Positions 2,644-64,000 of a stretch of DNA of 64,000 nucleotides are shown in pieces. The position numbers were made by a program, and so were the translations under genes. The notes under the pieces are model-generated. The model did no database searches. It had not been told where the DNA came from and saw nothing but the letters and a program-made list of their open reading frames with translations. Position 1 is the first letter of the stretch; every line of letters begins with the position of its first letter. This DNA is from Phoronis australis (Eukaryota; Animalia; Phoronida): contig NMRA01000214.1 of the NCBI GenBank assembly GCA_002633005.1, positions 23,336-87,335 on the forward strand. Reading direction: 5' to 3'.

Positions 2644-3794
2644 TCATCTGCCATCTTGTTCTATAATGCTGAAAATCCTCTCAGACTGAGAACTTCTTCT
2701 TCTTCTTCTTCCACTGTCGCTGTCACCTTTCATACTCAGTCTGAGGGTAGCAATGGCGTGTGCCCATGCGTAGATATGGTAGGCAGTCTTACTTACAACT
2801 TTAATATCCTCACTGCAGTACCTATTTAAGATATCCAGTGCACGGGCTGCTACTGATGGTCGGAGTTGGTCCAACGTGAAGTGTTCCAACAGCCATTCAA
2901 ATCCCTGGCTGCTATTACATATCTGCATGCAGCACAGCCAGCTACTCATGTCGTGCTCGTTTACTCCTAAAATCAACAGTGACGCAACTACAGTAGCACG
3001 AACTGCTCGCGGTGGGTTTCTGTACGACCTGAGTTCGGCAATCCTATTTTTACTCAAATGCAGTAAGACTTTCCTGCAGCGTGACATCGTTTGCAGTTTT
3101 TCTAATCGCTCCTTTGCCGTTCTGAACTCTTCTAACACACCACACAATCCTTTTCCTACAACGACAGAAAGCATTCTCTCCATACCGTCTAGATCATGCA
3201 CATTTTCCATCTCATTAATGGTGGATCGAAGCGACAGTGCGAGGACCATGTTTCTACTCTTTTTGACAAGGTCCAAGTCCTCCAGCTGATCTTGTTCTTT
3301 CAAATCTGCCGCTGTACATGCATAGTTTCGCAGTGCCTCTTCGATTCTTGGCCTGTCCGAAGACCTGAGGCTCATCATCAGCGACAGTTTGTTAACCTCA
3401 TGTTTAAGCAGACTAATAGAGTGTCTATCCACCTTACGCGGAGTCTTTGAGATGTCTTCTGTCGTCATTTTGTCACATACATCCATGAACCGTCCCACAA
3501 CATGACCTTCATCCGTTCTACGCAGCTGGTCCAGTAGCCACTTCCGTCCTAAGACTTCATTGTCACCACCTACCGAGCCTGTCCTCATTCCCTTTAAGCG
3601 AGCAATCCTCGTGAACAAGGCATCAAACTCCTCCGCGGCACGTGCCTGCTCTCGTTTGACGTCATCTAAGTACTCATTCCGCTTGTACCAGATGAACATA
3701 ACTATGAATGTCACAGCGCAAACAACTAAGAGGAATATAAGTAAATTGTTCGTCTCCAAAGCGTCGACAACGTGGTTCCACAAGTAGTCAAACC
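2644..3794 (-). CDS. Terminal exon: juxtamembrane segment, TM helix (~3685-3744), cytoplasmic helical region, dynein MTBD-like domain (~2743-3060), basic tail, stop
   Basis: Acceptor cgttttcgttttgcag|GG is in phase 1 with the TSP1 exon and opens the 400-aa ORF. LLIFLLVVCAVTFIVMFIWY is followed by KR. Motif ELRSYRNPP..V..T.....LILG...SW...VSKTAYHIYAWA. Confidence 0.88.
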
Positions 3795-6700
3795 CTGCAA
3801 AACGAAAACGATCTAAAGTTACCGTCTCTGCTGACATTGTCAACAACGCAATTTCTTTTTATCAACGTTACGTGGAAGTCAAGTGATGACGTATCTGCCA
3901 GTATTACGACGCAATCTGGATCCACAAATCGTAATACAAATGCACTGTCACATAAAGAATTGCTCATGCCTTGGATTTTTTTCTGATTCAGATAGTGATT
4001 TTGGTGATGTAGTACTTTAAATTTGTACAACATTATGTTATTTGGGTTAATCGGTACGCTCCGGGGATTGTTGCTGCCATGGTATGGCAGTCGGAGAGTT
4101 CAAAAAGTTTTGGATACACCAGATCCGATGAACTCTTCGTCAGTCTTAGGTCTCTTTCATGAAAAGCGACGGTCGCGTTCTTTTCGGACGGATTGCCATT
4201 TTAGGAAAACAATAACTTTTTTAATGGAGATTCTTTGTGGTCCACTTCTCAATAACCACTTTTCATGAAACAGACCCAAGACTAATGCTAATTTTTGAAA
4301 TTTCATTTGATTCAGGGTCCAAAACGTTCAAATGGCTTCATACTAAAAAGCGAATAATCTCAATCATGATCTTTGAACCGAAGAAATTAAATGTTTTCTA
4401 GTTTTCTTTCTTACTCTTTCCTTGTGGGTCACATGGTATTTCCCTCAAGCAAGCTCTGAAGTGTTTTTGCCAGCCCGGGCAGTACTTTCCACCGTTATCA
4501 GAAGGTGGCGGATTTGTGCAGGTGCGTATCCTTTTCTGTGTTCCCAGGTCGCATGCAGCATTGCAAATCTCCCACTGAAGCCAAGCTGACCATCCGCCGT
4601 GCACTAGTATTGCGACAAAAAGCAATCATTAATTTATTGGGCTTGGAAATTTTGTAATACAAAATAACACATCTTGATTATTATTTGCTTCGTGTGTTTG
4701 ATATCATTTAATTATGGATTAAGTCAATTAGTCAGGTGTGCTTTAGCCGCAAACCATATACTGTAGACGATGTTACAACATAGACTGTCGCCTTAGACAT
4801 GAATTTTCGCTTGTTGTCGAACGGACGATAATTTATGTTGGTGGCGATAACTGATATCGGGATCAACTCCGACATGAATTGTCACTCGACGTATGGTCGA
4901 GTTGTAGGAGCGCTAATGTGCTTGCATCATGTCAAACTTATCGGTAGTCTTTCGGGTTTATTTTTGATTCCCATCAAATACATGTACCATTTTGTGCGGG
5001 TTAAAGATTTTAATTCAACTCGAGAGCATTTGACAAAAAACGCAACCTCACCAACCACTTTAAGTTCCATTGTCACCGAAGCTGTGATTGATTGGTCTCT
5101 ACTGTTGTTAACAGAGCATGTAAACTTTTCCGTTTCGTGCCCCATGTATCTCGTAAACGACAGTTCTTTTTCAATCCAATTTACGCCGTTCTTTCTTGTA
5201 AACACCGTCTCCTCGGTGGACACCATCATGTTAGAAAACAACGATGTCGTCCCAGCCGGGTGAATTTTGGCAACACAGCGAATTGTGGCTTTTGTGGCGT
5301 TTGCGACGACAATGACGTTATCATTGACTTCTGTTACTTCGTCAGCGCTTTCTATTTTCAAGTCCAGTGGCCCGACTATTAAAACCAACTGAAGATAAAG
5401 CAGCCAAGCACACAAACGGGGCACAATTTCGAAAAAGCATTTATAAAACCTGCTTTCCGAAATAATGGGTGAATTTGTGTACGTGCAAGATATGATAGAC
5501 AAGCCTTGGCGAAAAGACGCTTCCATCTGTTTTAATGGTGCGATGTGTTGTAACAGCTTTTAAAAACAACGTCGAAATTAAACGAAGCTCCAACGCACAG
5601 AATTGCGACTAAATATCCATTGGTTTTCGTTTAGATTCCATTACAATTGTGATTAAATCTCTTTAAAATATCGACAGCAGTTTCTCCATTCGGTAATCGC
5701 AATTGCTGCAACTTATATTGCATAGATTACATTCATTTGCATTATGTGAGCATGAGGATACGATGTACTAAATTTTCGAACGAGTTATGCATTTTATCTT
5801 CCGTTGCTTGAGTGATATTTACGTTTTAGGCTGGGATCTTGAAATTTCGTACTCACTAAATGCAGTGCACTCTGTATGATGCTGTATGTGTACATTGTAT
5901 CTTCGTAAGGAGTTGACCTGAACATCAAATTGAGTCATCTTGAGTCTGTTTTTTGACAGTGATTCATGAGTGATATCACAAATTTGGTATTGCACTCCAC
6001 ACAACTGTTTCTATAAAAAATTAAATCTCACTTGAACTAAGTGTATTCTTTGAGAATATGCACATGGTGAAAAGTTAATAATTTCGAAAAAATATTTCAA
6101 GAGAGCGATGCGCTCATTATTACTTAGCCACACCCTTTTCAGAAATTGTAACTGCAAATGGGAGTCTAAGATCAAATTTCTTTCTTTTAAGACTTAAAAG
6201 TCTTGAGCCATTTTCAAGAAACAGGTCCCAGAGGATTGAATTTAGAGTATAGTCAAATGGCTACGAAGACATAAGGCACACATACATGTATTGTACAGAT
6301 TGCATCAAATTTTGAGATGACGCGCTTAGATTGTTGAAGACTTCATCCTTTTGATCTCCGAACGTGTTCTACATACAGTACATCAGGGCCAGGAGGATAA
6401 TCTTTTTAATAGAATTTGTCGAAATTGTTTTTGACATCTTACGTCTTACTTGTTTGCGAATTCAAGATGAGTGTCTAGTGTCCTGTGCTTCGGTATACTG
6501 TGCCTTACGTTGATAAGTGTTTACTCCTAGCTTGCATCTAATGACCCCAGCATTAACGCTATGAGTTCGAGACTGAATCGAAATATGGAATATTCAATCA
6601 AAATCTCAAGTTTTTAAGCAATATTATGTCCTGAGTCAAAAGGTCATCAAGTGTAAACTCTGATTAGAACTAATTTGCAAAAACCTAAACATATTTTGAA

Positions 6701-9700
6701 AGCATGGGAAGATCGTAAATCGTCAGGAATAATTTCAAGTTCCACTTAGGGCACAAAAGACCCCAGACTCTGCTCTGCAGTGTAATTACAGTGTTGATAA
6801 TAATCTGGCGGAATGCAGAAATCCCGGCGCAAGTTATTTGGTTTGCATATTCACATGTGATGTCGAGGATTCTAGACGTCGATGCCTTCATTTTTGGTGC
6901 CCGAGTGTTCCTGGCGACGCACTCCACGGTTCCCGCATGGTGTTCAGTGGTGACGATAGCCGATGACGAGGCCTCGTTGGTATTATTGTCGAAAGTGCGC
7001 ATTCCACGTGCGACCAGACGAGTGGTTGTTCCTTCCACTGTAACTAACCTAATACTGATATGAGATCCAGAGTTGGCGACCCCAGACCTGCACATCACGA
7101 CTAACAAGGTACCGTTGCTGGCCACTACGACACCACCATTCACCCCTTTGGTATTACGCAAAAACATGTCGACCGTGTGTGGACCTCTTGGCGGACCGCC
7201 TCCTGATAGTAATATGGGCAAATTTTTATAAGGTTCCTTAATTCCTGTTCACTTCTTTTAATTCGTTGCTGATGCTTACACAAACAGCTTTAACTGCTAA
7301 AAACTAAAGTTGCTAGCTTCAGTCACTAGAGTCCAGTGCCCGTAAATGCCTTTCATAAAACACTGAGCCCATGGGTGTTGGGAGTAAAATGGTTGTCGTA
7401 AACAAATCGTTAAGACATTAACGTCTGGATTTTTCGGATTTTATATCAGCATGACCTTCAGTTTCTCAACTTGACTTTGACCAATAATACGTACATGTAA
7501 AACTACGTCCTATGATCTAGAAAATACTAGAAATAGCGTATTGCAAAATACGATGTGCCGTCAAGTTCCATAGATGGAAATTGACTAAATTCAAGATGGC
7601 GGCATCTATCATCTTGAATTAGCGTAAAAGATTAGTTTATGTGAACGGTCTAAGACAAGATATTCAAAATTGCTGTTTTGTTTAAAGGGCTTAAAATCCC
7701 AAATTTCTTATCAACAACACCAAACAAATAATCTCGACATTCCATTAGCTGTCAATTTAGAGCATCTGAAAACATTATTTGATGAGGCGCCACTTTCTAA
7801 ACATAGCAAACTCATGTTCCGGTTAGTGTATTATGACTGGAAATTTTCACATCTTTTTTGCTGTCCAGTACAACAAAAATTATTTCGGCATTGAAACGCT
7901 GTTTAAAGTCTTTCAATAGCAGAACGTTTGGTATTGTTAGTATTTTGCCAATGCTACTGGTCAAGTAATTGCAAAATTCCAACTTCAGTGGCAACTGATT
8001 TTGTCGTCTGCTTGCAATATAGCAGCATATAGTTACTCCTGACAATTTGAGAATCAGCTGCCGGTTGTATGAAACAGTTCCAAATAGGGACTCAACTAGG
8101 ATCCTTAAGTCTTTTTGCGTCTTTATGTCTTTATGGACTCACCTATGCAACATTTTTCTATCATTTCATCTTTATTGGGAGCTCCTATTTTATTAATGAC
8201 ATTTTCTAACAATATAACTAAGAACTGAGCCCAGAGTTCATTGAAAATAAATAGGGACTCAGTCCTTAAATTGGGGGTTTCTACATAAATAGATCCCCAA
8301 TTAGTTTCGACATTTGACAATTCAACGTAAAGTTCACTCTCGAGTTGCATCAAAGTCAAAAGTTGACTTAGTGATGAAACTAAAACCATACAAGAAAGGG
8401 CAATTGATGTTTTCACATGTTCAAAAATACACAGTAGACTTGGGGAACTTAATTGAATCCCTATTTGGGACTGTTTCAGGCTACCGGGCACAGGGTTCAA
8501 GTACTGAGAAAATTACAAATATCAATAACCTCCTCCGCAAGATTCTGTGTTACTTTCACCAAGACTGAAGCTCTTCTCTAACATCCATGAGGACACGAAC
8601 CGAAGTGGCAAGTGATGGAAAATTCTGTACGCTCTAGTCCTTTGTTTCTAACCTCTAACCCATTTTTAAGAAAAGGATGTACTATTTTTGTCTTATGTTG
8701 ATAGTGCAGATTTTTGTTTTTTACCATGCAATAATATTGTTGAATGCATTTAGATGAACTGACGTCACTGAGTACAACAGAAAATGAACTAATCGTTACA
8801 CTATAAACTTTTGAAAATAGCAGTAACACCACTCCTTGAGAATCAAGCTTGTTTTCCAAAGGCTTTGCGCCACTAACCCAATGCGCTTACGGCGGGAAAA
8901 CGATAGACCCAGTTATTGTGCACGTATGCACTGTAGCAACGTTTTTTATCTTATTTTGATTTGTCCAATCTGTTGATATTGTAAATTTCCTTATTTATGC
9001 CCATCCCGATTTGACTGCAACTTGAGCTTGTTGGGCTCTACCGTATGTGCGTTAGCATAGGGACAAACACGGTGCTTACTGGAATGGGCTCATTTTAGCT
9101 GGTATTTCAAATTGTTTAGGTGAAGTAAATAATCAAAGTAGATGATTGTCATCCCCGGGATTTCATCATTAGTATTTTTGCCTGGTGCTGAAGTTTTCCG
9201 AGGCCAGGGATTGACACAAGGTAAAAGTGTTTCGCTGTACATCTAGGTCTGTGGCGTTATTGATAAAACAGGACCTTGTTTTAATCAGGAGCTGCATAGG
9301 GTTTAATTTGTGTAGACGATTATCTTCACCGCTAGTTCTCATAAAAATGAGCTTGTCTGTAGTAAACTCCCGTAAAGTCATCAAGGATTACCTGCAGTGT
9401 AACTGAAGTTCATAGAAAGTAAAAATCTGGACTTCCAAACCGCTTGATCTGAGTTGATATCTCACATAAACATTAAAACTATGATAATTCCACATAGAAG
9501 TATTCCATGAAATTGAAAAAACTCACCACCCCCTTTACCTTGTTTGCTTGTAACACGATGCAATATCTCAAGGGTTTTTGTGTGACAGTTTTTGCAAGGT
9601 GGCGTTAGCAGAACCGATCTACTATTTCAAAAGGACCATAGTTAGTATCCTTTACGCACGGGGCCCTTTCGTTACGTATGTTATGTACGGAGAGGCGTAC

Positions 9701-12700
9701 AAAACCTTCCGAAAATTTTTGTTTTTGTCAAAAAACATACGTTTGAAAGGTATAAGTTTGGAAATACTAGGACTTTAAGGCGAACATTTGAAAATCGTTT
9801 GACTGGTTACAAAAATTTGACATCATGCTACATGTATAAAAAACAACCTGCACACAAATTTGATGTTCCTGTTCCATGTTTGCAAAGAAGGCGAAACTCC
9901 GGTTAGTTGGTGGTATTTTCACAGACTGCTATGTACTTGACTAAGATTTTGTGTGGCATGTATTCGATCTTAAAATGAGTACGTAAACTGCTCTTGAAGC
10001 GCTAAATAGATTTCGGGTAGGCCAGGTTGTTATTTTTGGAGTATTGATGTGATCTTCATTTAAGTTAAGGATTTAGGAGCGTTCAAATTTATTTGTACAC
10101 GGATGAAAAATCGGCAAAATCAGTTAGCCAAATCCCGAAGAAATCTTCGCATTCTGCTGAAACGGTAACCGCCTTATCAAGGCCGTTATCAAGGCCAGCG
10201 AAGATGACTCATTTGATTTATTTGCTCATTGAAGTTCCTCGTAAGAACAGGAGTTCATGAATCGCTATCGTTGGAAAAACAATCAGTGGATAATTTTCAA
10301 AAATTTACTAGATAACTTTCGTCGAAAAAAAGAGTAAAGAACAATGGATATTTGAAGATAGAATCGAGTAGCACTTGGCCCAGATCTTCTTAAACATCAT
10401 GTATCATCAAAATGTCTTGAACAAATGAATGAAGTTTTCTTGCAGACGACGTACTTGCCGGAAATAAACCGTGCTATATCTACCAGGTGTCGCTAGTAAA
10501 TAATGGCGTCACGGCTTCTGTGTAAAATCATAGATTTCGTCGTTTGAAAATATATGGAGTCGGAGGTCCATGTACTATAGTCTATGGTTAGACGTAGCTT
10601 AAGTTTAAGATTTGTCTTAACTTCCAAACTTTGAAACTTTACATTCGGCAGGTAAGTCAAAATTTGGACAAAACTTATGTCAAACACTCAAGTCAAACTT
10701 AAGATCTCTTTCTTGAATTGGTTTTGAAACAAATTTAACTTTTATTTTAACATTTACAAAAATTTAAGATTTGTCTTAGCTAAGTCAGTTTTGTTGGAAC
10801 GTGCCGCTGTTTCCCATCTGTAAGGACTAGGCTCGCCAAAAACGAAAGCGTTTACCGCGAGAGCGTCGTCGAATATCACAACGTGAAGCGTTTCGAAGCG
10901 CTTTCCATATTGAACCCAGGGCAAGTGCCAGCACTGGTTTGCGAGAACTCAGTAGGCCTATGAACAAAGCTGAACGGAGAAACTTTGACTGAAGTAGACG
11001 AAGCAGGGGCTGTAACATAAAAGCCGTTTGAAGCGTGCACCGTTGCAGAGCTCAAGCGGTGGCTGCTTTGAAGAAATGCAACCACGAAGGTCGTCAAAAT
11101 TGACCTTGTAGCAAGGTAAATATTTGCAATACAGTTTTTCGACCCTTTTCACTCTACCCTGTACTTTCGTATAAATTTTGTTGACATGCTGCTAAAGCTT
11201 TTAATATATTTTTCCTGAACAGTACGAAGTGGTTACTCGTGTCTACCCAAGAGGCACCGTGGTACCAGAGGGTGTGGCTTTCAAAATGTCGGACCTGCAT
11301 ATGGGCTGTTAAAGTCGCTTTTCATCTATTTTCTAATTTGTGAAATTTTGAATTCACGGTATTGACATTCATTGCTATACCAGATGGTTTAATGATGCAG
11401 TCCGTCACTTGTCAAAACATGGTACATGTAACTGGCGTTTTTAATTATGCACTTTAACTCACACCTAATGTGTACGTGTACACTTGGGCTTACCTGCTTT
11501 TAGTTTTGTCCCGTTCTATAACTTGATGTTGAGCACTATTACTAAAGACAAAACCAACAAAAACTTAGCAGTAAAGTTATCTGCGAGTTACGTTGCAATA
11601 TCCAAACGTTTTGCATGTATGAGGCAGTCGATGTCGTTAAAAAGCAACCGCTTTGCCTCTTTTTGAAATCTGCGTTGAATCCCTCGAAAGTGCTAAATAC
11701 ATTTGATATGGAACCAGTTGCAACATTTGAAACACTGTATTCCATCTGGGGAAAGTTTAGAGCTACTTGAAGCAGTCTCGGGGACGGGAGTAATTTGTGT
11801 AAGCTATTCGTGACTTACCGAACACTTTGATGTTAAGCCGGCTTGAAGCACTCAATGAAGGTTCTCGTACATTAGTTGCAAAACACCACACAGTCGACTT
11901 GTCGTAGTCGTTCGAAACTTCCAAAACGTATTTCCCGCGGAATGTTCCGTACGCAGATCTCTCTCCCTTGGTGTTCGCTTCGAACGTTGTTCCAGATTTT
12001 AAGCGAAATTGAAATTTAAATGAAACCTCTTGGAATGACCTGTCGGTTGAACAGTAGAGGATCACCCTTGCACCTAGCATCAACACCCATGTGCCTCCAC
12101 GATCACGTCTTCCTCCCCAGCAGTGGAATGCCGTTATTCGCAGAGGAACAACTGGAACTGGTTATGATGAACATAAGTGCAGCAATTAAACTGTCTTGAT
12201 CTTGATAGCTCCTCAATTATACAATGCCAGATGTTGACATATTTATTATAACTGTGGGAGAATGCAGCCTCCAACTGCATCTAAATCTGGGGCAGATTGT
12301 CACCCATCTTTTTATTTTGAGGTGTTATATAATCTTTGCACATACGTGTTTATATTCTGTATCTGCGCTATTTTTCTCTCTCATGATATCTGACCTTTAA
12401 CTTCGTCTCCATGTTTTTGTGTCACTGGTAAACTAGCAGTTAGGGTATGGAAAATATTATTCTAATATCAAATTATTGGCTATTTTGAATCCACGTTTCT
12501 CCTCATCGTGTTTGCGTGTCTTCAATACGTGTGACCCAGGTTGTTTTTTCCTATTGGACATGAATCTGTTCTTTCTCTCTTCAACAGTTTGCTACCGCCC
12601 CGATTTTCGTCAACTCCAGTTTTCACTCTCAATTTCTCAACATATCCAACATTCTTCTTTTCCTTTTTAAACTTTATACCACAATATCAGCCTCGAATGG

Positions 12701-51700: not shown

Positions 51701-54700
51701 TACCTCATGGCTTCCTTCATATGTTCAAAGTGTAAATGTGGACCTCAGGGGCCTCCAAAACTGAAGCGTCTAAATAACAGACCTCGGAAGCCCAGCAACA
51801 TCTAATGCTTGCGCTAATGTTTGCAGGTACTTTTTTATTTCAAAACTTCAGTAATTGGATGACCGTGTCGTTTTGCCCCTTTGACGTAATTGCCTCCAAT
51901 GATTCCCAACCACGTGTAATTCAGTAATTATGTTATACTGTAAACATTTGCCTTTACACAACACTAATAAAGACTGTAAAAGTAAACTATTGTTAAAGTG
52001 CAATTCTAATAAACGCATATGATTGTACTGACAACTTAATGGACAAAACCGTTCATAACCGCAGAATAGACAAGTCTATGACGTACATGTACGTCACGAG
52101 CTCTTTGGACTGACCGTGGGTGTACAAAAAGCACATGTATATTTGTAGCGCACAGAAATGACTTTCAACAGTTTTCGTTTAATAGCAATTTAGCGCAATG
52201 ACATTAAGCCACAGAATGCGACCCAGAATCCAGTTTCATCAAACACGCTCGCATTCCAATATCAACGCCAATTTTTTTCCTCGGATTCTCCAATAACTGC
52301 TTAATAATGTAAAGTCTCAGTGCTCACTAGCCACCAAAGCTCGTTCCAATGTTATCAACACTCACATGCTACATTTACTTGAAATTGTCGTGTAACCGTG
52401 GAATTAGTTGCGCTGGCCACTGCCAAACATTTTGCTACAGCTAAATTCATATGTCTTCCAGCAGTGAAGGTAAGATTTGTCTTGTAAACAAAGCCGCCGT
52501 CGACACTTTTGGTCACTTCGAGTTTCGACAAAACTGCAGCCATAGGCCAATCCCATCTTAAAGTAGCTTTAGGATATACACTGTCGGTTGTGCATTGAAT
52601 AGTGTGTGTTACATTCTCCACGGTTGAGAACGAGCTTTCTGTGTCGTCGAAAAATCCCCGCTGCTCACTTAAGTCAGATATGTACAGTGTTGTAGGTCCA
52701 TCTGGAATGTCAAGATGGGAAGTCGACATTAGCAGTCAGTTGCTACGCTCTATCACTAAGTCATCGATGCCTAGATGTGGCAATGTTACACCACAATTAG
52801 ATTTGATGCATTTGGATGGTTAATAACTTTCGTGGGGTATCCTTTCTTTCAATGTTGACTGCTTTTTATCCACAGAGTTTGGCAGCGAAGAATTGATTTC
52901 ATTACACTGATAGCAGCCCTCGCTATCTGCAAAACTGTGAAGGACTGGCACATGGATTGTCGCGCTAGTGGGCCTCGTTCACTTTCCATGCCATCTATAA
53001 AAATGTTACATTAAAAGTTCCAAAATGACGCTTATACGCATTCCGCTCACTTGGGTCGTGAATTGGTTAGTTAGATATAATCCTTTGAAGGTATTGAATA
53101 CTGCGAGACCGATTTCGTGTGATTAAAAGGCTTAACTTGAATTACATTTTCCGTCAGTTGATCGACATGTGATGCAGCTTTCATAAGTTTTGCTCCAAAT
53201 CACGTAATAGGAGAGATGTCATGTTTTTCAAAAAGCATTGAGTTTCACAATACGCTGAATCCAGGTTGAGCACATCGGTAGAAAACGAATAGCGAGACAC
53301 AACAGTAACTTGGTTCAACATCAGGGGGACGTCAATAGAAGACTTTAGTTGAAACCTTCTTTTGACGTTTAATATGCGACTTCTTGCATATTGTGAACGA
53401 TTCATGTTAACGTTAGGACCCACACTATCGGTTTCACAAGTCAATACAAGTGATGTATTCTTGTGAACGTAGTGTTCTGATTCTGTCACAATCCCGTGTG
53501 GTGTGTTTATTGTCAACTCAATGTTCTCGGACCGTCTCTAATTTCTGTAAAAACACACGGGTGTCTTCTTGTGAGCTTATTAAATCAAAACCAATCTGTA
53601 CCGAAAATGCAATTTTGCCCCAGACTACCTCGATTTGACACAAATATTCAAAAATGCACTGGAGGCATCGGAAACAAAAAACGCAAAGTTGCAGGCTGCG
53701 CTTAACTTTACAGGTATTAGCACGAGTGAGAAACAACATGACAACCGTTCTTCCAAGCCGGACAGACTCCCCACAAAACAGGACCTACGGTGATCAAACT
53801 GGACCGCCGCACCAGAAAATGGGATCGACTCACCTAAAAAACATGACCGCCCCATCACGAAACAGGACCGAGAGAGGCTGAACATAGCCGCCGGAGTTGA
53901 AACTTGACCGCAATGACAAGTACTCTGTTTTAGGACGGGCGTAGGCCTGCACAGATGATACAATGGGGCTATTTACTCACGAAGATAAATCCACTGAAAT
54001 GTCTTGTGCGCTACAGGACATCCCATACTGGTCACTTCGCTTTGTAAAATGCAACGCTTTCGAGCTTTAACTTCACGAAGATTATTCATTATGAGAATCT
54101 GTAGACCCGCTGTCATAACTTACATTAATTTTTCGAGTCTTCATGAACCAAGAAAAGCTAACGACAATAAGCTATTCACAGATTTTCAAATACCAAAATA
54201 TCCCTAAGGCCCGCTTATGCGAGACCCTATCGCGTGTTTTTTCTGAAATCAGGGTAACTTAATTCCGCCATAGACTTTTTTAAAAGTCACCAGTATTTAT
54301 ATTATTTTTCTATTACCCGCATTGAGAGTTTTCATGGTTATGTTATTTTGGAATTAAAGCGATTCCCCACAGTGTGTACCAAGATTGTATGTACATGTAC
54401 CTGTGCACCACGCACAATGTAGTGTCTTAAATTTATGGCTGTAGCAATAAGTCTAGGTTAGTATTGTTTTGCCTTTCGTATTGGATGAAACAAAAGAAGG
54501 AAAGTAACATCGATAGCAATACGTTTGATTTACATGTTCAAGATGAAATGCTATTAGTGTTTTCCGAATTACCACTTCATTTCCGTTTCACGTAACTTCT
54601 GTTTTTTATGAAAACCATAAAAGTCCGATGTTTATAGCCTTCAATAAAAAGTGGTACATTTTAAAAACAATCCCTGTTAACATAGAGAATAATTATGAGA

Positions 54701-57700
54701 CGAGTAGTCTTACACGCCATAATTTGGTCACGTCACGTAGTCTATAGTTAAGTCTGAAAAGATCTCTGTACCGATCGGGGCTCAAACCTCATAATTTCTG
54801 CATACCATGCAGACGCTATAGGCCTCTGACTGAACATTAATAATTCTTACTAACAACATATCAACGCATGCCACCTTTAAGTTTCATACGAGTCCGATCA
54901 GCCATTTTTGTGATCTGATGTTCCGAAGTTTCCGAACTTAGACAGTTTCTAGATCACCATCACAAGTCAGCGCTACGAGCGCAAATGCCTGATTTAAGTC
55001 AGTTACATGTACCTGAGCACTAATCTCAAGTCAAGGCTTAAACTTAAGATCATTGAATGAACTATCGCGTTCACATGCTCACAACACTGCGCCATCCCTG
55101 TACTTAGCGATGTTTTATTCGATGCTCCCAGCTGAACTTGTAGCCTCGAGTCCGTGCTGTACGGTGGCCGGGAAAGGACATGCCAATCATGATTTCCCAT
55201 CTCGGGAGGCTGACTCAAGTCGAGCTCTCGATTGATAACTCGAGCGTTCGATTTAGGAAAAATAAAGTAGCATGTCCTTTCCCAGCCACCATACTGATGG
55301 ACTCGAGCAGGTTCACGTAACAATACATGTACTGTAGGAATACAGTGGATGTTCGCAACCAATCGACACTCTCGCGTGTAGCAGCAGTATGCCCAATGCG
55401 ATTTTTTATCCAGTTTTTAATGTGTCGAGTAGGATGGACATGTTCACTTCTTGAACACTGGCATTTCATAAATTTTTTGTATTGGTCTCCGCAAGTTTCA
55501 CTTGCTATATTCAGTATGTTCTATTGCATATGCATCATTATATCAACACTTTAATGTGCGAGGCTAGTATGGAAGGTGTCATAAACTGACTAAGTTAAAA
55601 TCCTTTCAAACCCTGTATCAAATCATATAAAAAACAAATCTCTCAATACTTACGCAGCACATTGAGTTTCACAAACCGCTGAGTCCACGTTGAGCCTGCA
55701 GGTGGAGAACGAATTGCGCTACACACAACTGTGAATTGATTCCACTTCGGGGTGACATCAATAATTGTCTTCAGTTGAAAACCTCCACTTACGTTCATAA
55801 CGCGGCCTACTGCACCGTGTGACCAGGTCATGTTAACGTAGGGGTTAACATCATCCGTTTCACAAGTCAAACTAAGTGACGTATTCGTGAGCACGTCGTA
55901 TGCAGACTTATTGATAGTTCTGTGTAGGGTTTTTATTGCCAATGTTTTTGGACCGTCTGTAAATTCAAGAAATTCGTGAATATCTAATAACATTTCATTA
56001 AGGCAACACTACATCAGACCCGCCTGTGTTGGATTAACCATTAAGTCAAATAAATTACACGTACAGCTTGGGGCCTCGCGGAAAATGGAACTTCCCGTCT
56101 CCATAATGCTCTGTGGCTGGGGCAATCCATTAAGCTAAAAAGCAGTTTCAAAGGGCACGGAATGGGCCCTTGTCTCATCTACGCATGGCCCCCTTAAAAG
56201 CTGTTTCGACAGGGAGGCAGTTCCAACTTTGAGATGGAAGATGTGAATTGTAATAACTGGGCCACAGATGTTTCATAATTTAAGGCCCCAAGAACCTTAA
56301 CTGATGAGGCACTGCGTCCCGTGATTGCTCAAGGGCAGTGGTTTAATAACCGAAGAAAACTGATACAGAAGTGTCATATAATCAACAATTTTGGTCCAGG
56401 TGTTACATTTGGGACCTGATTGCATGTTGAGTGCAATTTATGCTGCTGTAAATACATTAGTTTCAACTATTTTGGGAAAGTTTGATGATCGAACAGGCTA
56501 AACGGCGTCGAGTCGAAACTGACCTTCCTTTTCAACTTCCCATATCAGAGGGCACTGTTGAAGTAGTCCGGGAGAGGAATACGGAAAACTTTATCACATG
56601 GCCGTATTGCGTATGGGATAATATCCTATCGCGGTAAAAAAATAATATGAAGTTGAGTTTATGAGAGTAAAATGTGTAAGTCGGATTTGAATGTGAGCTA
56701 ATTAAACAGGATGGCGAAATATAGTTTCACGGGTCATGCTTCAAATAATATGTCTTGCAGCCCTAAATATCTCAGTCAAATAAGTGACAAAAATCGTCTT
56801 GGAAACAACAACAATTAGACCATGCTATGGGAATTTCTTATATGTAACTACTTTTTTGACGTTGTAAAATAGTTCAATAGAAATAGTGCAATGCTTGCTC
56901 GCCATTGATCATGGTATTACCAACACTCACATTCTACCTTCACCCAAATATCTTCAGTGATATTCAAACCCGTCATGACAGCAGCAGCTGAACAAGTGGC
57001 TTTAGTTAAATGCATGCTTCTGTCTGCCGTGAAGGTAATATTTCTCTGGTAAATAAGTGCTTCGTTGGTGCCTTCGGCTACCTCTACTCGCGACGAAAAA
57101 CCACTCACAGGCCAATTCCACCTGAGAGTAGCGTTAGGATACACACTGTCTGTTTTGCAATGCATGGTGTAGGTTACATTCTCTACAGCTATGAAAGAAC
57201 TGTTGGTGTCGAAACGGCCTTGATTTTCACTTACGTCAGAGATGTACAGTGCGTTGGGTCCATCTACAATTTGAAAGCAGAAGTCAATACTGATCACGCC
57301 CTGTCGAATTTTGCTTTGAATCACGCTGTCATCTAACGGCAGATGTAACAATCTCAAGCCACATGTAATTCACCCTTCGCGGAAAGCGAAACCTTATGGT
57401 GTGCATGTCCACTTGTGGACTGGACATGCACTGTAGGTGTTTGTTTATTGAAATCTGTTGCGCAAATGAAGGTAAGCCATAAAATAGTTTTCTGACGGCT
57501 TTTGAGGTCATGTCCGCGTAGGGTGCCTCCCCCAAAATCCGACTATGCAATGACAGACGGAAGTCGGCGTGCAAGTCTCACTGCACATGCCTTGGTTTGG
57601 CGTCTACCATAGCCAAATAATTCAGGCGATAGTCGAAGGAGCAGGTGTGCTGAAGCCTGGCTTGTACATGTACATGTATGGCAGCTTATGACAGGTAGAC

Positions 57701-60700
57701 TTAACTGTGAGGTAGCGGTTAATCACATGACGAATTGTTCAAACATCACGTCGATTTAGTGCCCCACTACGTCGACGAAGTATTCCATCAAGTTGATTTG
57801 GTTGGTTGTTGCTCCCTAGGAGTCATTGAAACGGCAACGGAGATTTCACCACGCTCCAGTAAGATGCACCACGATAGACTACCGGATATATTTAGGTAAA
57901 CAAGCTACAACTTGGGGACCCTAGCAAAACAAGTGCCCCTCTTTGTAGAAGCCGGGGCTCAAGCTAAATTTTCAAATGTAACACCTTACTCTTAAATCGG
58001 CATTTCCCCGCAGTTCATGTTACAGTTTTAACTGAAGTGCTTTGGGTTTTTAAAGACATAACCGCGCTCATCCAGTCTTGAACTGTTACCGAATGCGTAC
58101 ATGCTTCATTGACAAGTTTACAATTTTAGGACTGGTAAACTCCAATAAACTCCAAAGCATTTTCGTTAGTCACTGTTGATCCCGATGCTCTTGTTAGTAC
58201 AGAAATTGAAATCTTATCAGAATAAGAGATATCACGAGCTTAAGGTTATGAAACTTTTAATATACCTCGCTGTGTGCATTGTTCTCCAAGACGTTGTTAT
58301 GAAATGTCTTTAAAACGTCCCACTTTTGCATCGGGGTTCATTGAAAATAGAACTTTTGTGATTTTCAAGAAATTAAACACCCTTCAGCCACATCAAATTA
58401 AAACAGAATTATGTTTTAGGAATTGCAATATTGTTTTTGAGATCTCATCTTGAACATTATATATCAAACGAATTTTGGTCGTGTTATTGATACCGATGAT
58501 GTGTTAGCAATGTGCATTTTCTTTTTTTGCTAAATTTCACTACAAGGATACGGACGTGTGACTCAATTAAAAGCTGATTTGTAAAGCAATGGAAAACTCA
58601 AATTTTCAGATTCAGGAAATATATAATTTTACTCAGTTAAAATCTGTATTTTTGTATATCTTTGTCTAAATACGCAGACATTTCAATGTGCTTCCACATG
58701 ACCTAAAGTAGTCTAATTCATTTAGTTTATTGGCAGCTAAACACCGCGGAAATGACACTCGCGCTCAACAGGATGGCATTTGGGAACTGCGTCTTTATTC
58801 GTTTAGTCTCAGGCTGCCCTGCTTTAAAAAGTATGACCACCTGAAACCCCCTCGACCCCCTTGACCACTACAACCCTCGACCCCTTCGACCCACAACCCC
58901 CTCGATCCACGACCCCTGACCCACTTTCCCCTCGACCCACGACCTGTGGCAATAGAGGTGTCTGTGCGCTTTTTACATATCTCATATTAATCTTATTACG
59001 TCCCTGGGCGACTTTCCCATAAGACATACGTACACGCGAGTCTGCTCTGGCTGAAGTCTGGTGAAAACAGAAAATGGTCTTGAATAGCGCATTGTGAGTG
59101 CTCTACCGTTATCCCTATGTCGTGCAAGTCAACATAACGCGCAGCACAGTTCCACGAGCGGCTATCACCGGCACAGTTCTAATAAACGTAGGGAGAGAGA
59201 GTACGTTAACGTGATTGTACATAATTTCATATTTTTATTATTTGCTTTATATTTTATACTCGTTTACAATATACTCCATATAACTAGTAAACAAAAGCTC
59301 TTTTCGCCAGAGAAATGTGTTTTGAACAAAGCTGAAAATTTTACTCACAGAGGTGTTTGACATAGAGAAGCAAACTGATTCTGAATTCTTAGCTCAGCAA
59401 AGGTGGGACAAACTAACATGATCTCTGCAAGTAAAGACGTTTTGAGAGCAGAGAAAGTGTATTTCAACCTCTATGCATGGGACAGTACAAAATTCACACA
59501 AACTTAAAGCTCCTCAATACGAGTAAAAATACCAAAACGTCCAGTTTACGCTTTCAGCGGCAAGATTCCACATCTAAATTGAGAATATAGGGACTTTTTC
59601 CCTAGAAATTTAATTTTTTAATTGTAATTCTGTTTGATAGTTTGTTTCAAATAATTTACCTTGGGTTTACTCAAAAATTCAGCCCTCTATTCAACAACCA
59701 TTTGGCACCCCCTGAATTTTACCTGATTTGCACTCCTCCCTTGTACCCCTTTGCTGGCACCTGGGGGCAACCCCCCCCCCCTGAACCCCCAGGAGCATTC
59801 ATTAAAATTATGTAGTTCTTGGAGGTGTGAAGTGTTATAAGAAACGGTTATTTGCCTTATTAAGAACTCAGAACTCAAACATGAAACAAAACCATTATGG
59901 CTTTTGAAGGGGAGCTTCAAGAGAATGAAAGCAAATACACTAAAACAGTCATTTTCATTCTCTAATTTTACCCATTTTTAATCACTCAGTAATTTTATTG
60001 CACTTCGAACGTCATTAAGTATAAATTTATCAGTGTATACATGATTCAAACTCCGCCGCTAAATTAGTGTTGTCTATTCGCCGCTTGGGGCCCTAGTTTT
60101 TCGACTGATAACCATTGCGGCGAATGGCAAGATGGCGGAGTGAACACTCCTATCGTACTACACTCCTTGATAAGACCGGCGTTTTCGTGACAGCTAACAG
60201 CCAGAAGTACGACTTCACTTTTTGTTGTGCCTGGCGATGGGCCATGTTTATTTGGGCGTGACTGCTTAACTCCTTTGCTTGGGCCTGATTGGTGTGACTG
60301 TCTCCTGATTGATCGTAAAGCGGTTAACAAGATATTCGCGAAAGCTAGTGACTTAGACAAAATGTTAAATACGTTTGCTCACTTATTTTCGGATGAATTT
60401 GGTCTCATAAAAGGCGTAGAACCACGTTTGCACATACCATCTGATGTGAAACCACGGGTTTTTAAATCTCGCTCAGTGATATTTGCTCTCTGCGAGAAAG
60501 TAGACGAGGAACTTGACCGTAAGGACCGTTAGGAATTTTTAGCCCTGTGGAATCTTCGAGATGGGCTATAGTCATTGCTTCAGTGGAAAAGGCTAACAGG
60601 AAAATTACTATTTGCGGAGAATATCGATTGATTGTGAACCAAGTTGCACTTCTTGATAGATACCCATCACCGAAAATTGTCGAGCTGCTGACTAAGTTAG

Positions 60701-62350
60701 CGCATGGTAGTCAGTTTCGAAACTACTTACACTCAACGTGACCTGTGTTACCAGGAGCGACTAGCGTGGGGAATCGCGTTAGCCCTGCGAGTTGGTAACG
60801 CGCCATAGACAAGGGTTACCCGGATTCATAGTGTACTTAGATGGCATGGCCGTTACAAGTAAATACGGGATCAGCACTTTGCAAGTCTGAAAACTGTTTT
60901 GCAAAAGCTGTCAGATGCAGGGATCAGATTGAATCATTCAAAGTGTAATTTTTTACTGGACGAGATCGGGTATTTACACCATCGTATTGACTATTGACGC
61001 ACAAGGTCTCCATCCTAAGATTGGGGCCATTAAAAATGCCCCAGTGTCGAAAGATGTGTCTGAACTGAGAGTTTACATCGGAATGGGAAATTACTAGGGG
61101 ATATACATCCAGAATGCGTCAACACAGTTTGCACCTTTGTACAAGTTACTACAAAAAAAACAACTCTTGGCGTTGGACGACCGGCCAAGTACACGCATTT
61201 CATGCATCAAGGGATTTCCTATGTTTTGACGCTGTGCTCGCTCATTATGATACGGAGAAACCGATAGTTTTCACTTGTGATACCTCTGCGTATGGTGTCG
61301 GTGCTGCTATTGCTCATACCCATCCGGATAAGCACCGATGGCTTTTAACTCAGAAACTCTGAGCCGTGCGGAAAAGAAATATAGTCAATTAGACAAGAGA
61401 GGGGCTTCAATTATTTTCGAGCTAAAGCACTTTCATCAGTATTTGTAAGAGGAGAAACTTCGTTTTCGAGACTGACCATCAGTCTTTGCTGAATATTTTG
61501 GAACGAAAAAGGGATTTTGCAACTGACATTTGATCGCTTAACGCGTTTGTCGTTAATACTATCAGCATATTGTTACGTTTGGTATAAACCGGGATCTCAA
61601 CTCGAAAATGCTGACGCGCTGAGCCGATTACCAGTCAACCCTGCTCCGACAGATGTCGCTGTACCCGGACGAACGAATTAGCTCAAGAAACAGTTGTCTT
61701 AGACATGAGCAAACGTGGCAGAGATGAAACGTTTGACTGCACGAGACCCTGTTCTTTCGTAAGTCGTGCACTTTGAGAAACATGATTAGCAGTTGGACAG
61801 TGGTGACCATTTTACAATCGTACAGTGTAAGCTCGAGCTGAGTTTGGAGGATAGTTGTTTGCTTTGGGGGTGTTCTTTAGTAATCCCCACTGCATTGCGT
61901 ACTATCATTCTCAGTGAACTTCATGAAGCCCACCCAGAAATGTTGAGAAAGAAGGCATTGGCTAGGTGCTACGTGTAGTACCCTCATAGATTGTGCAATA
62001 CGTCCGTGGTTCACTTAGTTGAATCACTATTTGGGACTGTCTCAAACAACGGTGCAAAGTACAATAGTAGGATTACTTACGTATGACAGCCAGCGTGATT
62101 TTGATAGCGTTCACTGGACAACATGTAGTGCAGTTCACATTCTTGCCGTGGTCTTGTGCGGTCGGTGAGAACTTTATGTTAGTGTAGTTGTTACCTTGAG
62201 TCTCCCTAGAGTCCACTAAGTTGTGTGAAATCCATGCTGATGGAACAGCTATTGCCTTACAGGTGATGCTGTAATTCTGACCAGACCACGTTACGTAGTT
62301 GGTAGTGTTTATTCTCAAACCGCTGTCTCCTTCTTCCCACCACATCCTAT
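2644..62350 (-). CDS. 5'-incomplete multi-exon gene: single-pass Ig-superfamily receptor/adhesion protein (>=23 Ig-like domains, TSP1, TM, cytoplasmic helical region plus dynein MTBD-like domain)
   Basis: 25 collinear minus-strand exons with AG/GT boundaries. All internal exons are phase 1-1 with lengths divisible by 3. Consecutive junction codons are all sense and often give V-x-Y/F-G-P Ig linkers. No signal-peptide exon was seen in the window. Confidence 0.85.
4415..4603 (-). CDS. Thrombospondin type-1 repeat exon
   Basis: [34 protein letters not shown]...CPG...C...C has the WxxWxxW, CxxxC and RxRxC TSP1 signature. tag| acceptor, |gtaaga donor, 189 nt. Confidence 0.93.
5052..5375 (-). CDS. 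Ig-like domain exon K (membrane-proximal)
   Basis: GPLDLKI...TIRCVA...FTCSVNN...ELKVV. tag| acceptor, |gtgagg donor, 324 nt. Confidence 0.85.
6855..7202 (-). CDS. Ig-like domain exon J
   Basis: GP...LVVMCRS...HHAGTVECVARN...LDIT. cag| acceptor, |gtgaat donor, 348 nt. Confidence 0.85.
8058..8490. mobile_element. MITE with ~35-bp imperfect TIRs and possible CAG target-site duplication (Harbinger-like by inference)
   Basis: Left ccggttgtatgaaacagttccaaatagggactcaa versus right reverse complement ccggtagcctgaaacagtcccaaatagggattcaa. A similar right end occurs near 62010-62055. Confidence 0.7.
10984..11116 (+). pseudogene. Decayed SAP-like domain fragment of a transposon-associated gene
   Basis: Reads LTEVDEAGAVT*KPFEACTVAELKRWLL*RNATTKVVKIDLVAR then AAG|GTAAAT. 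TVAELKxWL..R......K.DLV.R is SAP-like, with two stops. Confidence 0.5.
11819..12151 (-). CDS. Ig-like domain exon H (alternative in-frame acceptor at 12157)
   Basis: ...VILYCSTD...DYDKSTVWCFATN...LNIKVF. |gtaagt donor. Two tandem CAG acceptors 6 nt apart. Confidence 0.85.
12698..20905. mobile_element. Probable large decayed DNA-transposon-like insertion with convergent degenerate coding remnants and nested repeats
   Basis: Frameshifted, stop-ridden protein-like fragments on + (13.7-14.9 kb) and - (16.6-20.2 kb, including CEECDR). Weak terminal similarity (g/c)gccaataa. Boundaries uncertain. Confidence 0.3.
21293..23232. mobile_element. Internally deleted ISL2EU-like DNA transposon (THAP remnant on +, SWIM-like remnant on -)
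   Basis: TIR agacc(ct/ca)attcacgc at both ends, flanked by AT. 21353-21500 reads CCTPRCSN...FTIPKDVGIRKRWVLAIRR (THAP, one stop). Minus strand near 22800-22850 reads ICDSGGSKHVAV (decayed SWIM-like). Confidence 0.7.
23746..24081 (-). CDS. Ig-like domain exon G
   Basis: GPTRVTI...VDLKCVTD...QHGVRIRCKASN...VVMDVL. tag| acceptor, |gtaaaa donor, 336 nt. Confidence 0.88.
24612..24938 (-). CDS. Ig-like domain exon F
   Basis: GPNSL...IQCITDDVSP...DYDGSSITCVAQN...LVVL. cag| acceptor, |gtaaaa donor, 327 nt. Confidence 0.88.
26144..26802 (+). mobile_element. Candidate solo LTR
   Basis: Begins TGTCA, ends TGACA, with AATAAA ~55 nt before the end. No clean TSD. Confidence 0.4.
27974..28288 (-). CDS. 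Ig-like domain exon E (CD80-like C2-type)
   Basis: GPDKTTL...VQMSCSTDHVYPNASIFW...RTDNGKLVRCHAQN...INVA. cag| acceptor, |gtacgt donor, 315 nt. Confidence 0.9.
29413..29754 (-). CDS. Ig-like domain exon D
   Basis: GPKGVTF...IDCQTTEVHPSANVTW...LVCIATN...IIVK. cag| acceptor, |gtaagt donor, 342 nt. Confidence 0.9.
30238..30558 (-). CDS. Ig-like domain exon C
   Basis: GPTKVDI...TLQCTTDEVFPNASLQW...DHQDLGIRCQATN...IQVTSF. aag| acceptor, |gtgcgt donor, 321 nt. Confidence 0.85.
30944..31279 (-). CDS. Ig array type-A exon (A9 in transcript order)
   Basis: GPTAVYISDLSEQ...IQCRTDNVYPNATLRW...LKCSA...VNVA. cag|, |gtgagt, 336 nt, no stops. Confidence 0.9.
31744..32333 (-). pseudogene. Dead type-B Ig exon split by a ~290-bp insertion (~31966-32254)
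   Basis: Clear B-exon homology, but donor GT is changed to CT, there is an in-frame TAG, a 4-nt insertion follows the acceptor, and an internal insertion is bounded by tgac. Confidence 0.85.
34077..34412 (-). CDS. Ig array type-A exon (A8)
   Basis: GPTALYISDLKDQ...CTTDSVYPNATLTW...AKCSA...VNVA. cag|, |gtgagt, 336 nt. Confidence 0.9.
34897..35199 (-). CDS. Ig array type-B exon (intact)
   Basis: GPKTLTIKT...LTCETDSVNPYVNMTWSHG...VVCRAIRSPP...KLNVL. cag|, |gtaagt, 303 nt. Confidence 0.9.
35874..36209 (-). CDS. Ig array type-A exon (A7)
   Basis: Type-A sequence, cag|, |gtaagt, 336 nt, open frame. Confidence 0.9.
36735..37037 (-). CDS. Ig array type-B exon (intact)
   Basis: Type-B sequence, cag|, |gtaagt, 303 nt, open frame. 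Confidence 0.9.
37752..38087 (-). CDS. Ig array type-A exon (A6)
   Basis: Type-A sequence, cag|, |gtgagt, 336 nt, open frame. Confidence 0.9.
38916..39218 (-). CDS. Ig array type-B exon (intact)
   Basis: Type-B sequence, cag|, |gtaagt, 303 nt, open frame. Confidence 0.9.
39727..40152. mobile_element. Candidate solo LTR inserted just downstream of an A-exon donor
   Basis: TGTTA...TAACA ends. The segment is absent from the paralogous introns (e.g. near 50550-50580). TSD imperfect. Confidence 0.5.
40199..40534 (-). CDS. Ig array type-A exon (A5)
   Basis: Type-A sequence, cag|, |gtgagt, 336 nt, open frame. Confidence 0.9.
42683..44152. mobile_element. Nested non-autonomous DNA element with TTAA target-site duplication (Kolobok-like)
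   Basis: ttaa|agtccttgt ... acaaggact|ttaa. Removing it rejoins the BEL frame as ESSINLVFPEK. Confidence 0.75.
43059..43839. other. Assembly gap (run of N)
   Basis: Continuous N stretch. Confidence 1.
46453..46755 (-). CDS. Ig array type-B exon (intact)
   Basis: Type-B sequence, cag|, |gtaagt, 303 nt, open frame. Confidence 0.9.
47658..47993 (-). CDS. Ig array type-A exon (A4)
   Basis: Type-A sequence, cag|, |gtgagt, 336 nt, open frame. Confidence 0.9.
48322..48606 (-). pseudogene. Dead type-B Ig exon
   Basis: B homology with CAA changed to TAA (WN*), several indels, and both acceptor AG and donor GT lost. Confidence 0.85.
48726..50004. mobile_element. Non-autonomous TIR element inserted in the array intron
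   Basis: Left actgaccccggagtctaatcttcgtactcgaaa versus right reverse complement actgggtccgggttctaatctttttactggaaa. The flanks rejoin to match paralogous intron sequence near 51721-51765. Confidence 0.6.
50615..50950 (-). CDS. Ig array type-A exon (A3)
   Basis: Type-A sequence, cag|, |gtgagt, 336 nt, open frame. Confidence 0.9.
51178..51295. repeat. Local tandem duplication of ~53 bp
   Basis: gggcctcgctatccgcaaaactgtcaagaactggca(a/c)atgcattgtcgtgctggt occurs twice in a row. Confidence 0.9.
51544..51618 (-). pseudogene. Type-B Ig exon remnant with most of its interior deleted
   Basis: cattgagtttcataaaacgctgaatcc (3' end of B) is joined directly to gtgataacccc...tggaccg (5' end of B). Splice sites are lost. 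Confidence 0.8.
52366..52701 (-). CDS. Ig array type-A exon (A2)
   Basis: Type-A sequence, cag|, |gtgagt, 336 nt. Protein identical to the 50615-50950 exon. Confidence 0.9.
53231..53535 (-). pseudogene. Dead type-B Ig exon
   Basis: A 5-nt insertion after GPRTL gives TGA. A 2-nt deletion removes the second Cys frame. The donor is lost and the acceptor is GAG. Confidence 0.85.
55144..55308. mobile_element. Small MITE/hairpin with ~40-bp inverted repeats
   Basis: ctcgagtccgtgctgtacggtggccgggaaaggacatgc versus reverse complement ctcgagtccatcagtatggtggctgggaaaggacatgc. Confidence 0.7.
55654..55956 (-). CDS. Ig array type-B exon (intact, most divergent B)
   Basis: GPKTLAIKT...LTCETDDVNPYVNMTWSHG...VVCSAIRSPP...KLNVL. 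cag|, |gtaagt, 303 nt. Confidence 0.9.
56931..57263 (-). CDS. Ig array type-A exon (A1, most divergent A)
   Basis: GPNALYISDVSE...MHCKTDSVYPNATLRW...ATCSA...VKVE. tag|, |gtgagt, 333 nt. Confidence 0.9.
58846..58945. repeat. C-rich degenerate short tandem repeat (ccctcgaccc-like)
   Basis: Directly visible. Confidence 0.7.
60200..61995 (+). mobile_element. Decayed Ty3/Gypsy pol (protease tail, RT, RNase H, integrase zinc region), antisense to the host gene
   Basis: GPCLFGRD; ICGEYRLIVNQ...DRYPSP; decayed YLD(G); LAHYD...CDTSAYGVGA; AEKKYSQLDK; ELHEAHP. Many stops and frameshifts. Confidence 0.92.
62081..62350 (-). CDS. Ig-like domain exon X (most 5' exon visible)
   Basis: GQNYSITCKAIAVPSAWIS...FSPTAQDHGKNVNC...ITLAVI. 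cag|, |gtaagt, 270 nt, phase 1-1. Confidence 0.8.
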
Positions 62351-63609: not shown

Positions 63610-64000
63610 GTCACAAATGTAGAAAGGTTAGACGACTTTCTTGTTTGAATAATTGATAACAGGACATATAAGTGATCAATACAGGACCGTTGGCTTCGAA
63701 AACCATTTTGCTCGTCAACTAAAATATTGTTCTGTTCACAGAAACCCAAAATTCTATTATTCAGCACAGCACTGAAGATTTTACAAATATTGGAAAGAAG
63801 ACAAATCCCACGGTTGTTCAAAGGTAATCTAGAGTCGCCTGTAGAATTCTTAGGTATCGGGATTATAACTGGGTTATACCAGTCAGAAAGCAGTAGTCCA
63901 CGTTTAAAAGATTCATTGAACAATTGGGTTTGAAAAACAACAATAGCTTCGAATCTTAACACCTCATAAGGTATACAGTCATAGCCGACGGCTTTGTTAT
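63610..64000 (-). mobile_element. Non-LTR (LINE) reverse transcriptase fragment, RTE-X-like, truncated
   Basis: W...IIPIPK...NNRGICLLSNICKIFSAVLNNR...ILVDEQNGFRSQRSCIDH are LINE RT N-terminal motifs. Confidence 0.9.

Follow-up and report, generated by a model that had tools for sequence, protein, structure and literature searches.

Organization of the locus

The window, by which we mean the whole 64,000-nucleotide stretch of Phoronis australis DNA analyzed here, carries a gene of predicted giant size on its minus strand. Six-frame translation and splice-site inspection resolved 25 minus-strand exons between positions 62350 and 2644, comprising 23 Ig-type exons, one TSP1 exon, and one terminal exon. 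In the six-frame view, Ig-like frames run down the minus strand from 62.4 to 4.9 kb and are followed by a TSP1 frame and then by a 404-codon frame that ends at 2644. AG acceptors and GT donors are present at all exons, every internal exon is phase 1-1, and conceptual joining of the 25 exons yields a product of 2,929 amino acids (aa) with 0 internal stops, which bears out the original prediction of 25 phase-compatible exons joining into about 2,900 aa without a junction stop, including its count of 23 Ig exons. Any selection of symmetric phase-1 exons would preserve the reading frame, and the absence of junction stops is therefore weak evidence for a single transcript. The product has a single hydrophobic peak (KD 3.08; runner-up, 1.56), with 65 N-glycosylation sequons ahead of the hydrophobic segment versus 1 behind it.

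All features of the gene lie on the minus strand and are described here in the order of transcription. The first, K1 (62081 to 62350), is a divergent, short Ig-type exon with no Ig Pfam match, and the gene probably continues from there upstream of the window. Exons 2 to 15 alternate two types, A (n = 9) and B (n = 5), in duplications that take in introns: A2, a divergent A type (56931 to 57263), B3 (55654 to 55956), A4 (52366 to 52701), A5 (50615 to 50950), A6 (47658 to 47993), B7 (46453 to 46755), A8 (40199 to 40534), B9 (38916 to 39218), A10 (37752 to 38087), B11 (36735 to 37037), A12 (35874 to 36209), B13 (34897 to 35199), A14 (34077 to 34412), and A15 (30944 to 31279). Three additional B-type copies carry disabling stops or frameshifts; these pseudo-exons lie at 53231 to 53540 (frameshifts), at 48353 to 48602 (a stop and a frameshift), and, as an interrupted copy, at 31745 to 32327. 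The remaining Ig-type exons are C16 (30238 to 30558; Pfam C2-set_2 above the cut-off, donor GTGCGT), D17 (29413 to 29754), E18 (27974 to 28288; Pfam C2-set_2, E = 6e-9), F19 (24612 to 24938), G20 (23746 to 24081), H21 (11819 to 12151), I22 (6855 to 7202), and J23 (5052 to 5375). The TSP1 exon (4415 to 4603) encodes six cysteines and matches Pfam TSP_1 above the cut-off, at E = 5e-9. The terminal exon (2644 to 3794) is intronless and encodes a short linker, a transmembrane (TM) helix recognized from hydropathy and sequence (3685 to 3744) and followed by Lys-Arg, a cytoplasmic part of about 345 aa, and a stop.

An Ig-type Pfam match at E ≤ 1 was obtained for 16 of the 23 Ig exons, and two of the 23 passed the curated cut-off. 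Two invariant cysteines and a GP..C..C..V pattern are common to all 22 Ig exons that were aligned (A5 was omitted from the 23, its protein being identical to that of A4), and it is from these features, without Pfam support, that the remaining exons are called Ig. For H21, I22, and J23, Ig identity is given by the cysteine pattern plus one weak Pfam match, in J23. Scanning the window with an Ig profile for missed exons turned up just the three pseudo-exons; the scan is circular for the exons that built the profile and was used for missed exons only. The same profile had no match in a word-index search of longer proteins.

Transcript structure

RNA carrying the same species label comprised three raw runs (X1, X2, and X3) and one contig set. 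Splice joints were examined between positions 2400 and 23770 in raw reads at 97% likeness, with a listing threshold of 3 reads. Four of the 24 joints are supported by RNA, and the four are consecutive (Ig-Ig-Ig-TSP1-terminal exon), each on the minus strand with GT-AG borders: H21 to I22 (11819 to 7202; 5 reads in X1, 0 in X2), I22 to J23 (6855 to 5375; 4 reads in X1 and 4 in X2), J23 to TSP1 (5052 to 4603; 3 reads in each), and TSP1 to the terminal exon (4415 to 3794; 1 read in X1, 4 in X2). The terminal exon is covered to a depth of 6 to 8, on one strand, in X1 and X2 and to a depth of 0 in X3, and expression was thus seen in two of the three raw RNA runs. Ig domains and one membrane helix lie on the same transcript, which makes the product a single-pass IgSF protein. 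Together with the predicted fold described below, the four joints support the proposed Ig-TSP1-TM-MTBD-like order on one transcript (MTBD, microtubule-binding domain), and the last of them moves the start of the terminal exon, originally placed at 3846, to 3794. Because RNA reads splice TSP1 to the terminal exon, the latter is not a separate gene. We therefore rejected the alternative in which positions 2644 to 3846 are a stand-alone single-exon gene that starts at an ATG of its own, on the model of the short TM relative P0082.

Spliced RNA had been proposed as a check on the continuity of the Ig exons with the end of the gene, and it joins H21, I22, J23, TSP1, and the terminal exon; the joint between G20 and H21 (23746 to 12151, an intron of 11,594 bases) is not among the listed RNA joints. 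One reading of this pattern is that the locus holds two genes or main transcripts, namely, a short receptor (Ig exons H, I, and J, TSP1, TM, and tail) and a separate, possibly secreted, Ig-array gene ending in or near the 11.6-kb intron. The unlisted joint fits such a division, since the joint from TSP1 to the terminal exon was listed with a similarly short anchor, and so do the frame of G20, open for 51 codons beyond its donor, the X2 depth of 3.3 directly past that donor, and a same-strand SAM-like unit inside the intron. However, the test of this joint is weak because only 25 bases of G20 were covered, and the H21 acceptor is phase 1 like those of the other Ig exons and leads into the same Gly/Val-Pro start and cysteine pattern. 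Within the intron, none of five ATG-to-phase-1-donor candidates resembles a signal-peptide exon, and the search there for additional Ig exons was negative. Minus-strand reads about 1 to 4 deep occupy many bins of this intron (2 to 3 bins are near zero) in X1 and X2 but not in X3, and the proven intron between I22 and J23 shows the same read pattern; this likeness fits one long primary transcript. We regard two genes as unlikely and a single giant transcript as quite probable, and the full 23-Ig length is likely to be carried on one transcript. No signal-peptide exon was found in the five intervals scanned, which suggests that the 5′ end of the gene probably lies outside the window, beyond 64000.

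The large intron also contains pieces of a degraded multi-exon gene on the minus strand (16598 to 20167) with several good splice sites. They include a SAM-like frame at 19982 to 20167 (SAM_1 at E = 0.31 only) and protein-like frames at 17813 to 18124 and 16598 to 17088. The unit has same-strand read cover in X1 and X2 with no listed joints, and a search at 16598 to 20167 revealed no terminal inverted repeats.

Evolution of the Ig array

Pairwise dN/dS falls between 0.17 and 0.49 in 37 of 38 exon pairs, the 38th being the near-identical A4 and A5, and by this codon comparison the repeated intact Ig exons are under purifying selection (dN/dS about 0.3). A4 and A5 match at 335 of 336 bases, differing at 1, while the surrounding duplicated 1.2-kb unit is 81% alike, a disparity that points to likely exon-limited gene conversion. 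Plain false duplication of A4/A5 was rejected, as the entire duplicated unit is only 81% alike.

A repeat array of this kind might also be spliced in variable subsets from one gene, as Dscam-like or length variants, with the 23-Ig rod being one of many products that serve recognition diversity. All Ig exons are phase 1-1 and could be skipped in frame, and the paralogous copies are 65 to 89% identical (A4/A5 excepted) and are accompanied by pseudo-exons and gene conversion, as in recognition genes with fast turnover. Yet the A and B exons follow one another in alternation, as tandem units whose splice sites are strong and canonical, rather than forming separate cassettes, and with dN/dS below 0.5 in every pair there is no sign of positive selection. 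We consider such variable splicing very unlikely.

Mobile-element remnants were observed in and around the array. A broken Pao/BEL retrotransposon occupies 41818 to 45817 on the plus strand (Peptidase_A17, E = 5e-16; DUF5641, E = 8.5e-23). This remnant, which contains a 781-base assembly gap (43059 to 43839), splits the array between B7 and A8, and the same Ig repeat types flank it on both sides. Positions 60191 to 61359 and 63420 to 63998 hold an LTR-type remnant (RT_RNaseH_2, E = 5e-10) and a LINE-like reverse transcriptase remnant (RVT_1, E = 8e-5). At the opposite end of the window, positions 1 to 654 form a GC-rich 57-bp tandem repeat (11.4 copies, 89% matches) that is open on both strands.

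The cytoplasmic tail is homologous to the dynein MTBD

Searched alone against the PDB with phmmer, the terminal exon matches dynein stalk/MTBD chains at E = 0.0035 to 0.005, and it gives a weak Pfam MT match at E = 0.069. A profile of the tail's family, built from 91 sequences from which long proteins and proteins with strong MT matches were left out, matches the yeast dynein MTBD at E = 1.3e-13. The fold modeled from this 91-sequence alignment has a pLDDT of 83; a fold predicted from the single sequence was of low quality (pLDDT, 38) and was not used. Foldseek placed dyneins first (6kio; root mean square deviation [RMSD], 2.8 Å over 121 columns), and all top five matches in a wide fold search were dynein stalk/MTBD structures (best Z, 14.9; RMSD, 2.0 Å over 124 residues). 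Cytoplasmic residues 192 to 319 (2725 to 3108) constitute the MTBD-like domain, with short CC1/CC2-like helices. It is preceded by two predicted helical-hairpin repeats (cytoplasmic residues about 86 to 191; 3109 to 3426), which are common to a motor-less family described below and gave only middling helical fold matches (Z ≤ 9.3). Sequence and predicted fold both identify the cytoplasmic domain as homologous to the dynein MTBD (H1 to H6 between CC1 and CC2), and the original MTBD-like assignment is upheld on both counts. The tail is without the AAA+ motor ring and the long coiled-coil stalk: it ends in a stop after 345 aa, and in the model short hairpins precede the MTBD.

Compared with the dynein heavy chain (PF12777; 5ayh, 3err, 6kio), the tail is alike in its homologous MTBD sequence, its predicted fold, and the contacts retained in H1. 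It differs in that short hairpins and a membrane helix precede the domain in place of the AAA+ ring and long antiparallel stalk and in the loss of the H3 and H6 arginines. Recent capture of a dynein exon was rejected, as family members score 60 to 76 bits versus about 20 for dynein and a quick tree places the protein outside the PF12777-strong branch. We also set aside a TTLL11 motif called "MTBD-like"; in the relevant part of PMC12366701 this is an unrelated use of the name.

A widespread family of motor-less MTBD-like modules

We searched 1.84 billion representatives exhaustively and recovered 145 relatives at E ≤ 0.001, none of which reached 1e-30; the best are 18 to 44% identical over partial stretches. 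By this sequence measure, the protein has no close relative on record. The originally noted mismatch to hemicentin, UNC5, nephrin/sidestep, and Dscam is upheld. Word-index protein searches with the terminal exon, among proteins of near length and among longer ones, gave no match; these negatives are weak, because the search without a word index found the 145 relatives. An Atlas look-up of the tail returned mollusc hypothetical clusters (0.87 to 0.91) and one cluster with 14% PF12777, with a weak recognition score.

We ran Pfam scans on all 145 relatives, retaining the best five families per protein, and looked up 30 individually. The Pfam MT cut-off was reached by 24 of the 145, and none had an Ig C2/I-set or TSP1 match at the thresholds used among its best five families; the combination of Ig, TSP1, and MTBD-like domains is therefore new. 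The module ranges from sponge to amphioxus and sits at the C-terminal end of very different proteins. It ends 29 hillarin/KY-like transglutaminase proteins from molluscs, Lingula, and amphioxus, two of which carry CARD, and it occurs in EF-hand "trichohyalin-like" proteins of the sea cucumber Apostichopus and the sea slug Plakobranchus, in a sponge (Oscarella) protein, in an annelid protein, and in proteins built of tandem MT-like repeats. E values of the module for these named relatives go down to 1e-14. The tail shares the family hallmarks: at the C terminus, an MTBD-like domain bearing E-x-R, PP, LLG, W, and W motifs comes after helical hairpins. It resembles the other motor-less proteins in its C-terminal hairpins and MTBD-like module while missing their basic patch.

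The tail is not one of a kind: a predicted membrane segment already lies ahead of the module in 9 of the 145 relatives. Examples are the amphioxus CLCA1-like proteins XP_019614282.1 and XP_035689228.1, an amphioxus CD20-like protein, and a VWA-TM protein of the tunicate Styela (XP_077966891.1). Each part of the receptor is individually known, and the databases already contain membrane-bound family members without names. A quick tree of 159 segments places the protein outside the PF12777-strong branch (SH-aLRT, 99) and among KY-like cytosolic members (94, not starred), on a long terminal branch (0.98) and apart from the other membrane members. To explain the membrane-bound label, this tree requires 5 changes, of which starred branches force 3; this suggests repeated grafting of the module onto membrane proteins and does not establish a donor. 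In the literature covered, which was partial and mostly at the level of titles and abstract openings, we found no description of this architecture or of a motor-less MTBD family.

Two further groups of relatives are of interest in their own right. Six (P0002, P0034, P0039, P0074, P0093, and P0098, partly from plankton sources) have 3 to 5 tandem MT-like domains and no motor among their listed Pfam matches (best five families) and are candidate multivalent microtubule binders. P0107 (amphioxus) and P0128 combine KY-like domains, CARD, and the MTBD-like module in one protein, and the CARD sequences hint at a possible link to immune or death signaling.

Microtubule contact residues

The part of PMC7042235 that treats tubulin contacts names six salt-bridge residues of the yeast MTBD: K3117, E3122, and R3124 in H1, R3152 and R3159 in H3, and R3201 in H6. 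In the phmmer alignment three of these six are kept here, all in H1 (K3117, E3122, and R3124). R3152, R3159, and R3201 are replaced by Leu, Asn, and Val, with a Lys one place before the R3201 position; according to the same part of PMC7042235, each such change costs more than 2-fold in affinity in yeast, H3 contact positions can shift between species, and H1 and H6 form the weak-binding surface to which H3 is an addition for strong binding. Since H3 adds strong binding and H1 and H6 make up the weak surface, the sequence of this domain predicts weak microtubule binding at best. With half of the known contact residues lost, the original proposal of coupling to the microtubule cytoskeleton was overstated.

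These losses bear on a second reading of the receptor, in which the same giant protein has an MTBD-derived tail that no longer binds tubulin and instead docks a helical partner or other proteins with the same module, as a signaling or trafficking scaffold. Besides three of the six contact residues, the protein has lost a basic patch of the family after H3: in the span aligned to residues 253 to 267, 83 of 84 members have at least 2 K/R and this protein has 0. An acidic residue (D/E) occupies the R3201 position in 32 of 74 members. The long end branch in the tree and the occurrence of the module on very different proteins, two with CARD, would likewise suit a docking role, as would the contacts that dynein MTBDs make with other proteins: the MTBD fold in 6l4p contacts light chain 1 (LC1), and a passage of PMC11779644 describes contacts with DRC9/DRC10 helices. 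Against this, the E-x-R tubulin contacts of H1 are better conserved than any other polar residues in the family (glutamate at the E3122 position in 90 of 90 members and K/R at the R3124 position in 83 of 90) and are kept here, and the domain remains net basic, at +5 over residues 201 to 311. We think it possible, if somewhat doubtful, that tubulin binding has been given up altogether.

A candidate adhesion receptor with a proposed microtubule anchor

We tentatively favor, at a little under an even chance, a single-pass IgSF adhesion or recognition rod whose motor-less MTBD homologue, identified by sequence and modeled fold, would provide a weak, static microtubule anchor. In this protein, splicing joins the Ig, TSP1, and membrane exons to the sequence for the motor-less MTBD homologue; the TSP1 domain adjoins the membrane, and a long glycosylated rod would lie outside. 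Ig domains are about 4 nm long, and with all of the at least 23 Ig exons on one transcript the rod would reach roughly 90 to 100 nm. Tandem copying of a paired A and B exon may have lengthened it, several B copies being lost along the way. The tail may have entered the gene as a single exon without introns, drawn from a widespread cytosolic module, in an event separate from those that produced the other membrane-bound members. Because it has neither an AAA+ motor nor a long stalk to switch affinity, the domain would be expected to act as a static, low-affinity anchor, mainly through helix H1 and aided by clustering in the membrane. The broader proposition, that an ancient, undescribed invertebrate family of motor-less MTBDs has repeatedly been grafted onto membrane proteins and here, in its most extreme case, equips an Ig rod of about 100 nm to bind microtubules directly across the membrane through a co-opted dynein tip, without adaptors, strikes us as conceivable but rather unlikely as a whole.

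Several known architectures are partly similar. Hemicentin/fibulin-6 also has a long tandem Ig array followed by TSP1, but hemicentin has an N-terminal vWA domain, is secreted, and continues through TSP1 repeats into G2, EGF, and fibulin modules, whereas here a single TSP1 is spliced straight to the TM exon. UNC5 shares the order of Ig, TSP1, TM, and cytoplasmic domain, but it has two Ig domains, two TSP1 domains, and a ZU5-UPA-death tail in place of the at least three Ig domains joined by RNA (probably at least 23), the one TSP1, and the all-helical MTBD-like tail found here. Nephrin, sidestep, Dscam, and the long C2-set rods CEACAM and sialoadhesin are likewise single-pass IgSF proteins of one-exon C2-type domains, and CEACAM has a similar alternating A/B repeat. 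Dscam1 splices its exon arrays in a mutually exclusive manner. In nephrin, sidestep, and Dscam, however, FN3 rather than TSP1 lies next to the membrane, and the tails of all five are short and motif bearing, in contrast to the folded 345-aa helical tail of this protein.

The dynein MTBD is usually studied as part of a motor, and adhesion receptors reach microtubules via adaptors. A membrane receptor that itself carries a dynein-derived domain would connect the cell surface to microtubules directly and, if direct binding holds, would define a new class of receptor-to-microtubule link; its tail would be a natural test of MTBD function without motor and stalk. The wider family, with at least 145 sequence clusters, mostly below the Pfam cut-off, may outweigh this gene in importance.

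The fold search also returned proteins from microtubule assemblies. Chain 9ya2_L, on the Toxoplasma intraconoidal microtubule, matches the tail at Z = 9.3 (RMSD, 3.1 Å over 125 residues), which is middling for helices; from its residue numbers and a table in PMC12819142 it is probably ICMAP2. The relevant passages of that paper draw no link between ICMAP2 and dynein, and the modeled match raises the prospect that ICMAP2 may hide an unnoticed dynein-like MTBD. Other tail matches from microtubule cryo-electron microscopy structures were 9fqr_Xl (Z = 9.4) and 9e5c_2e (Z = 7.0).
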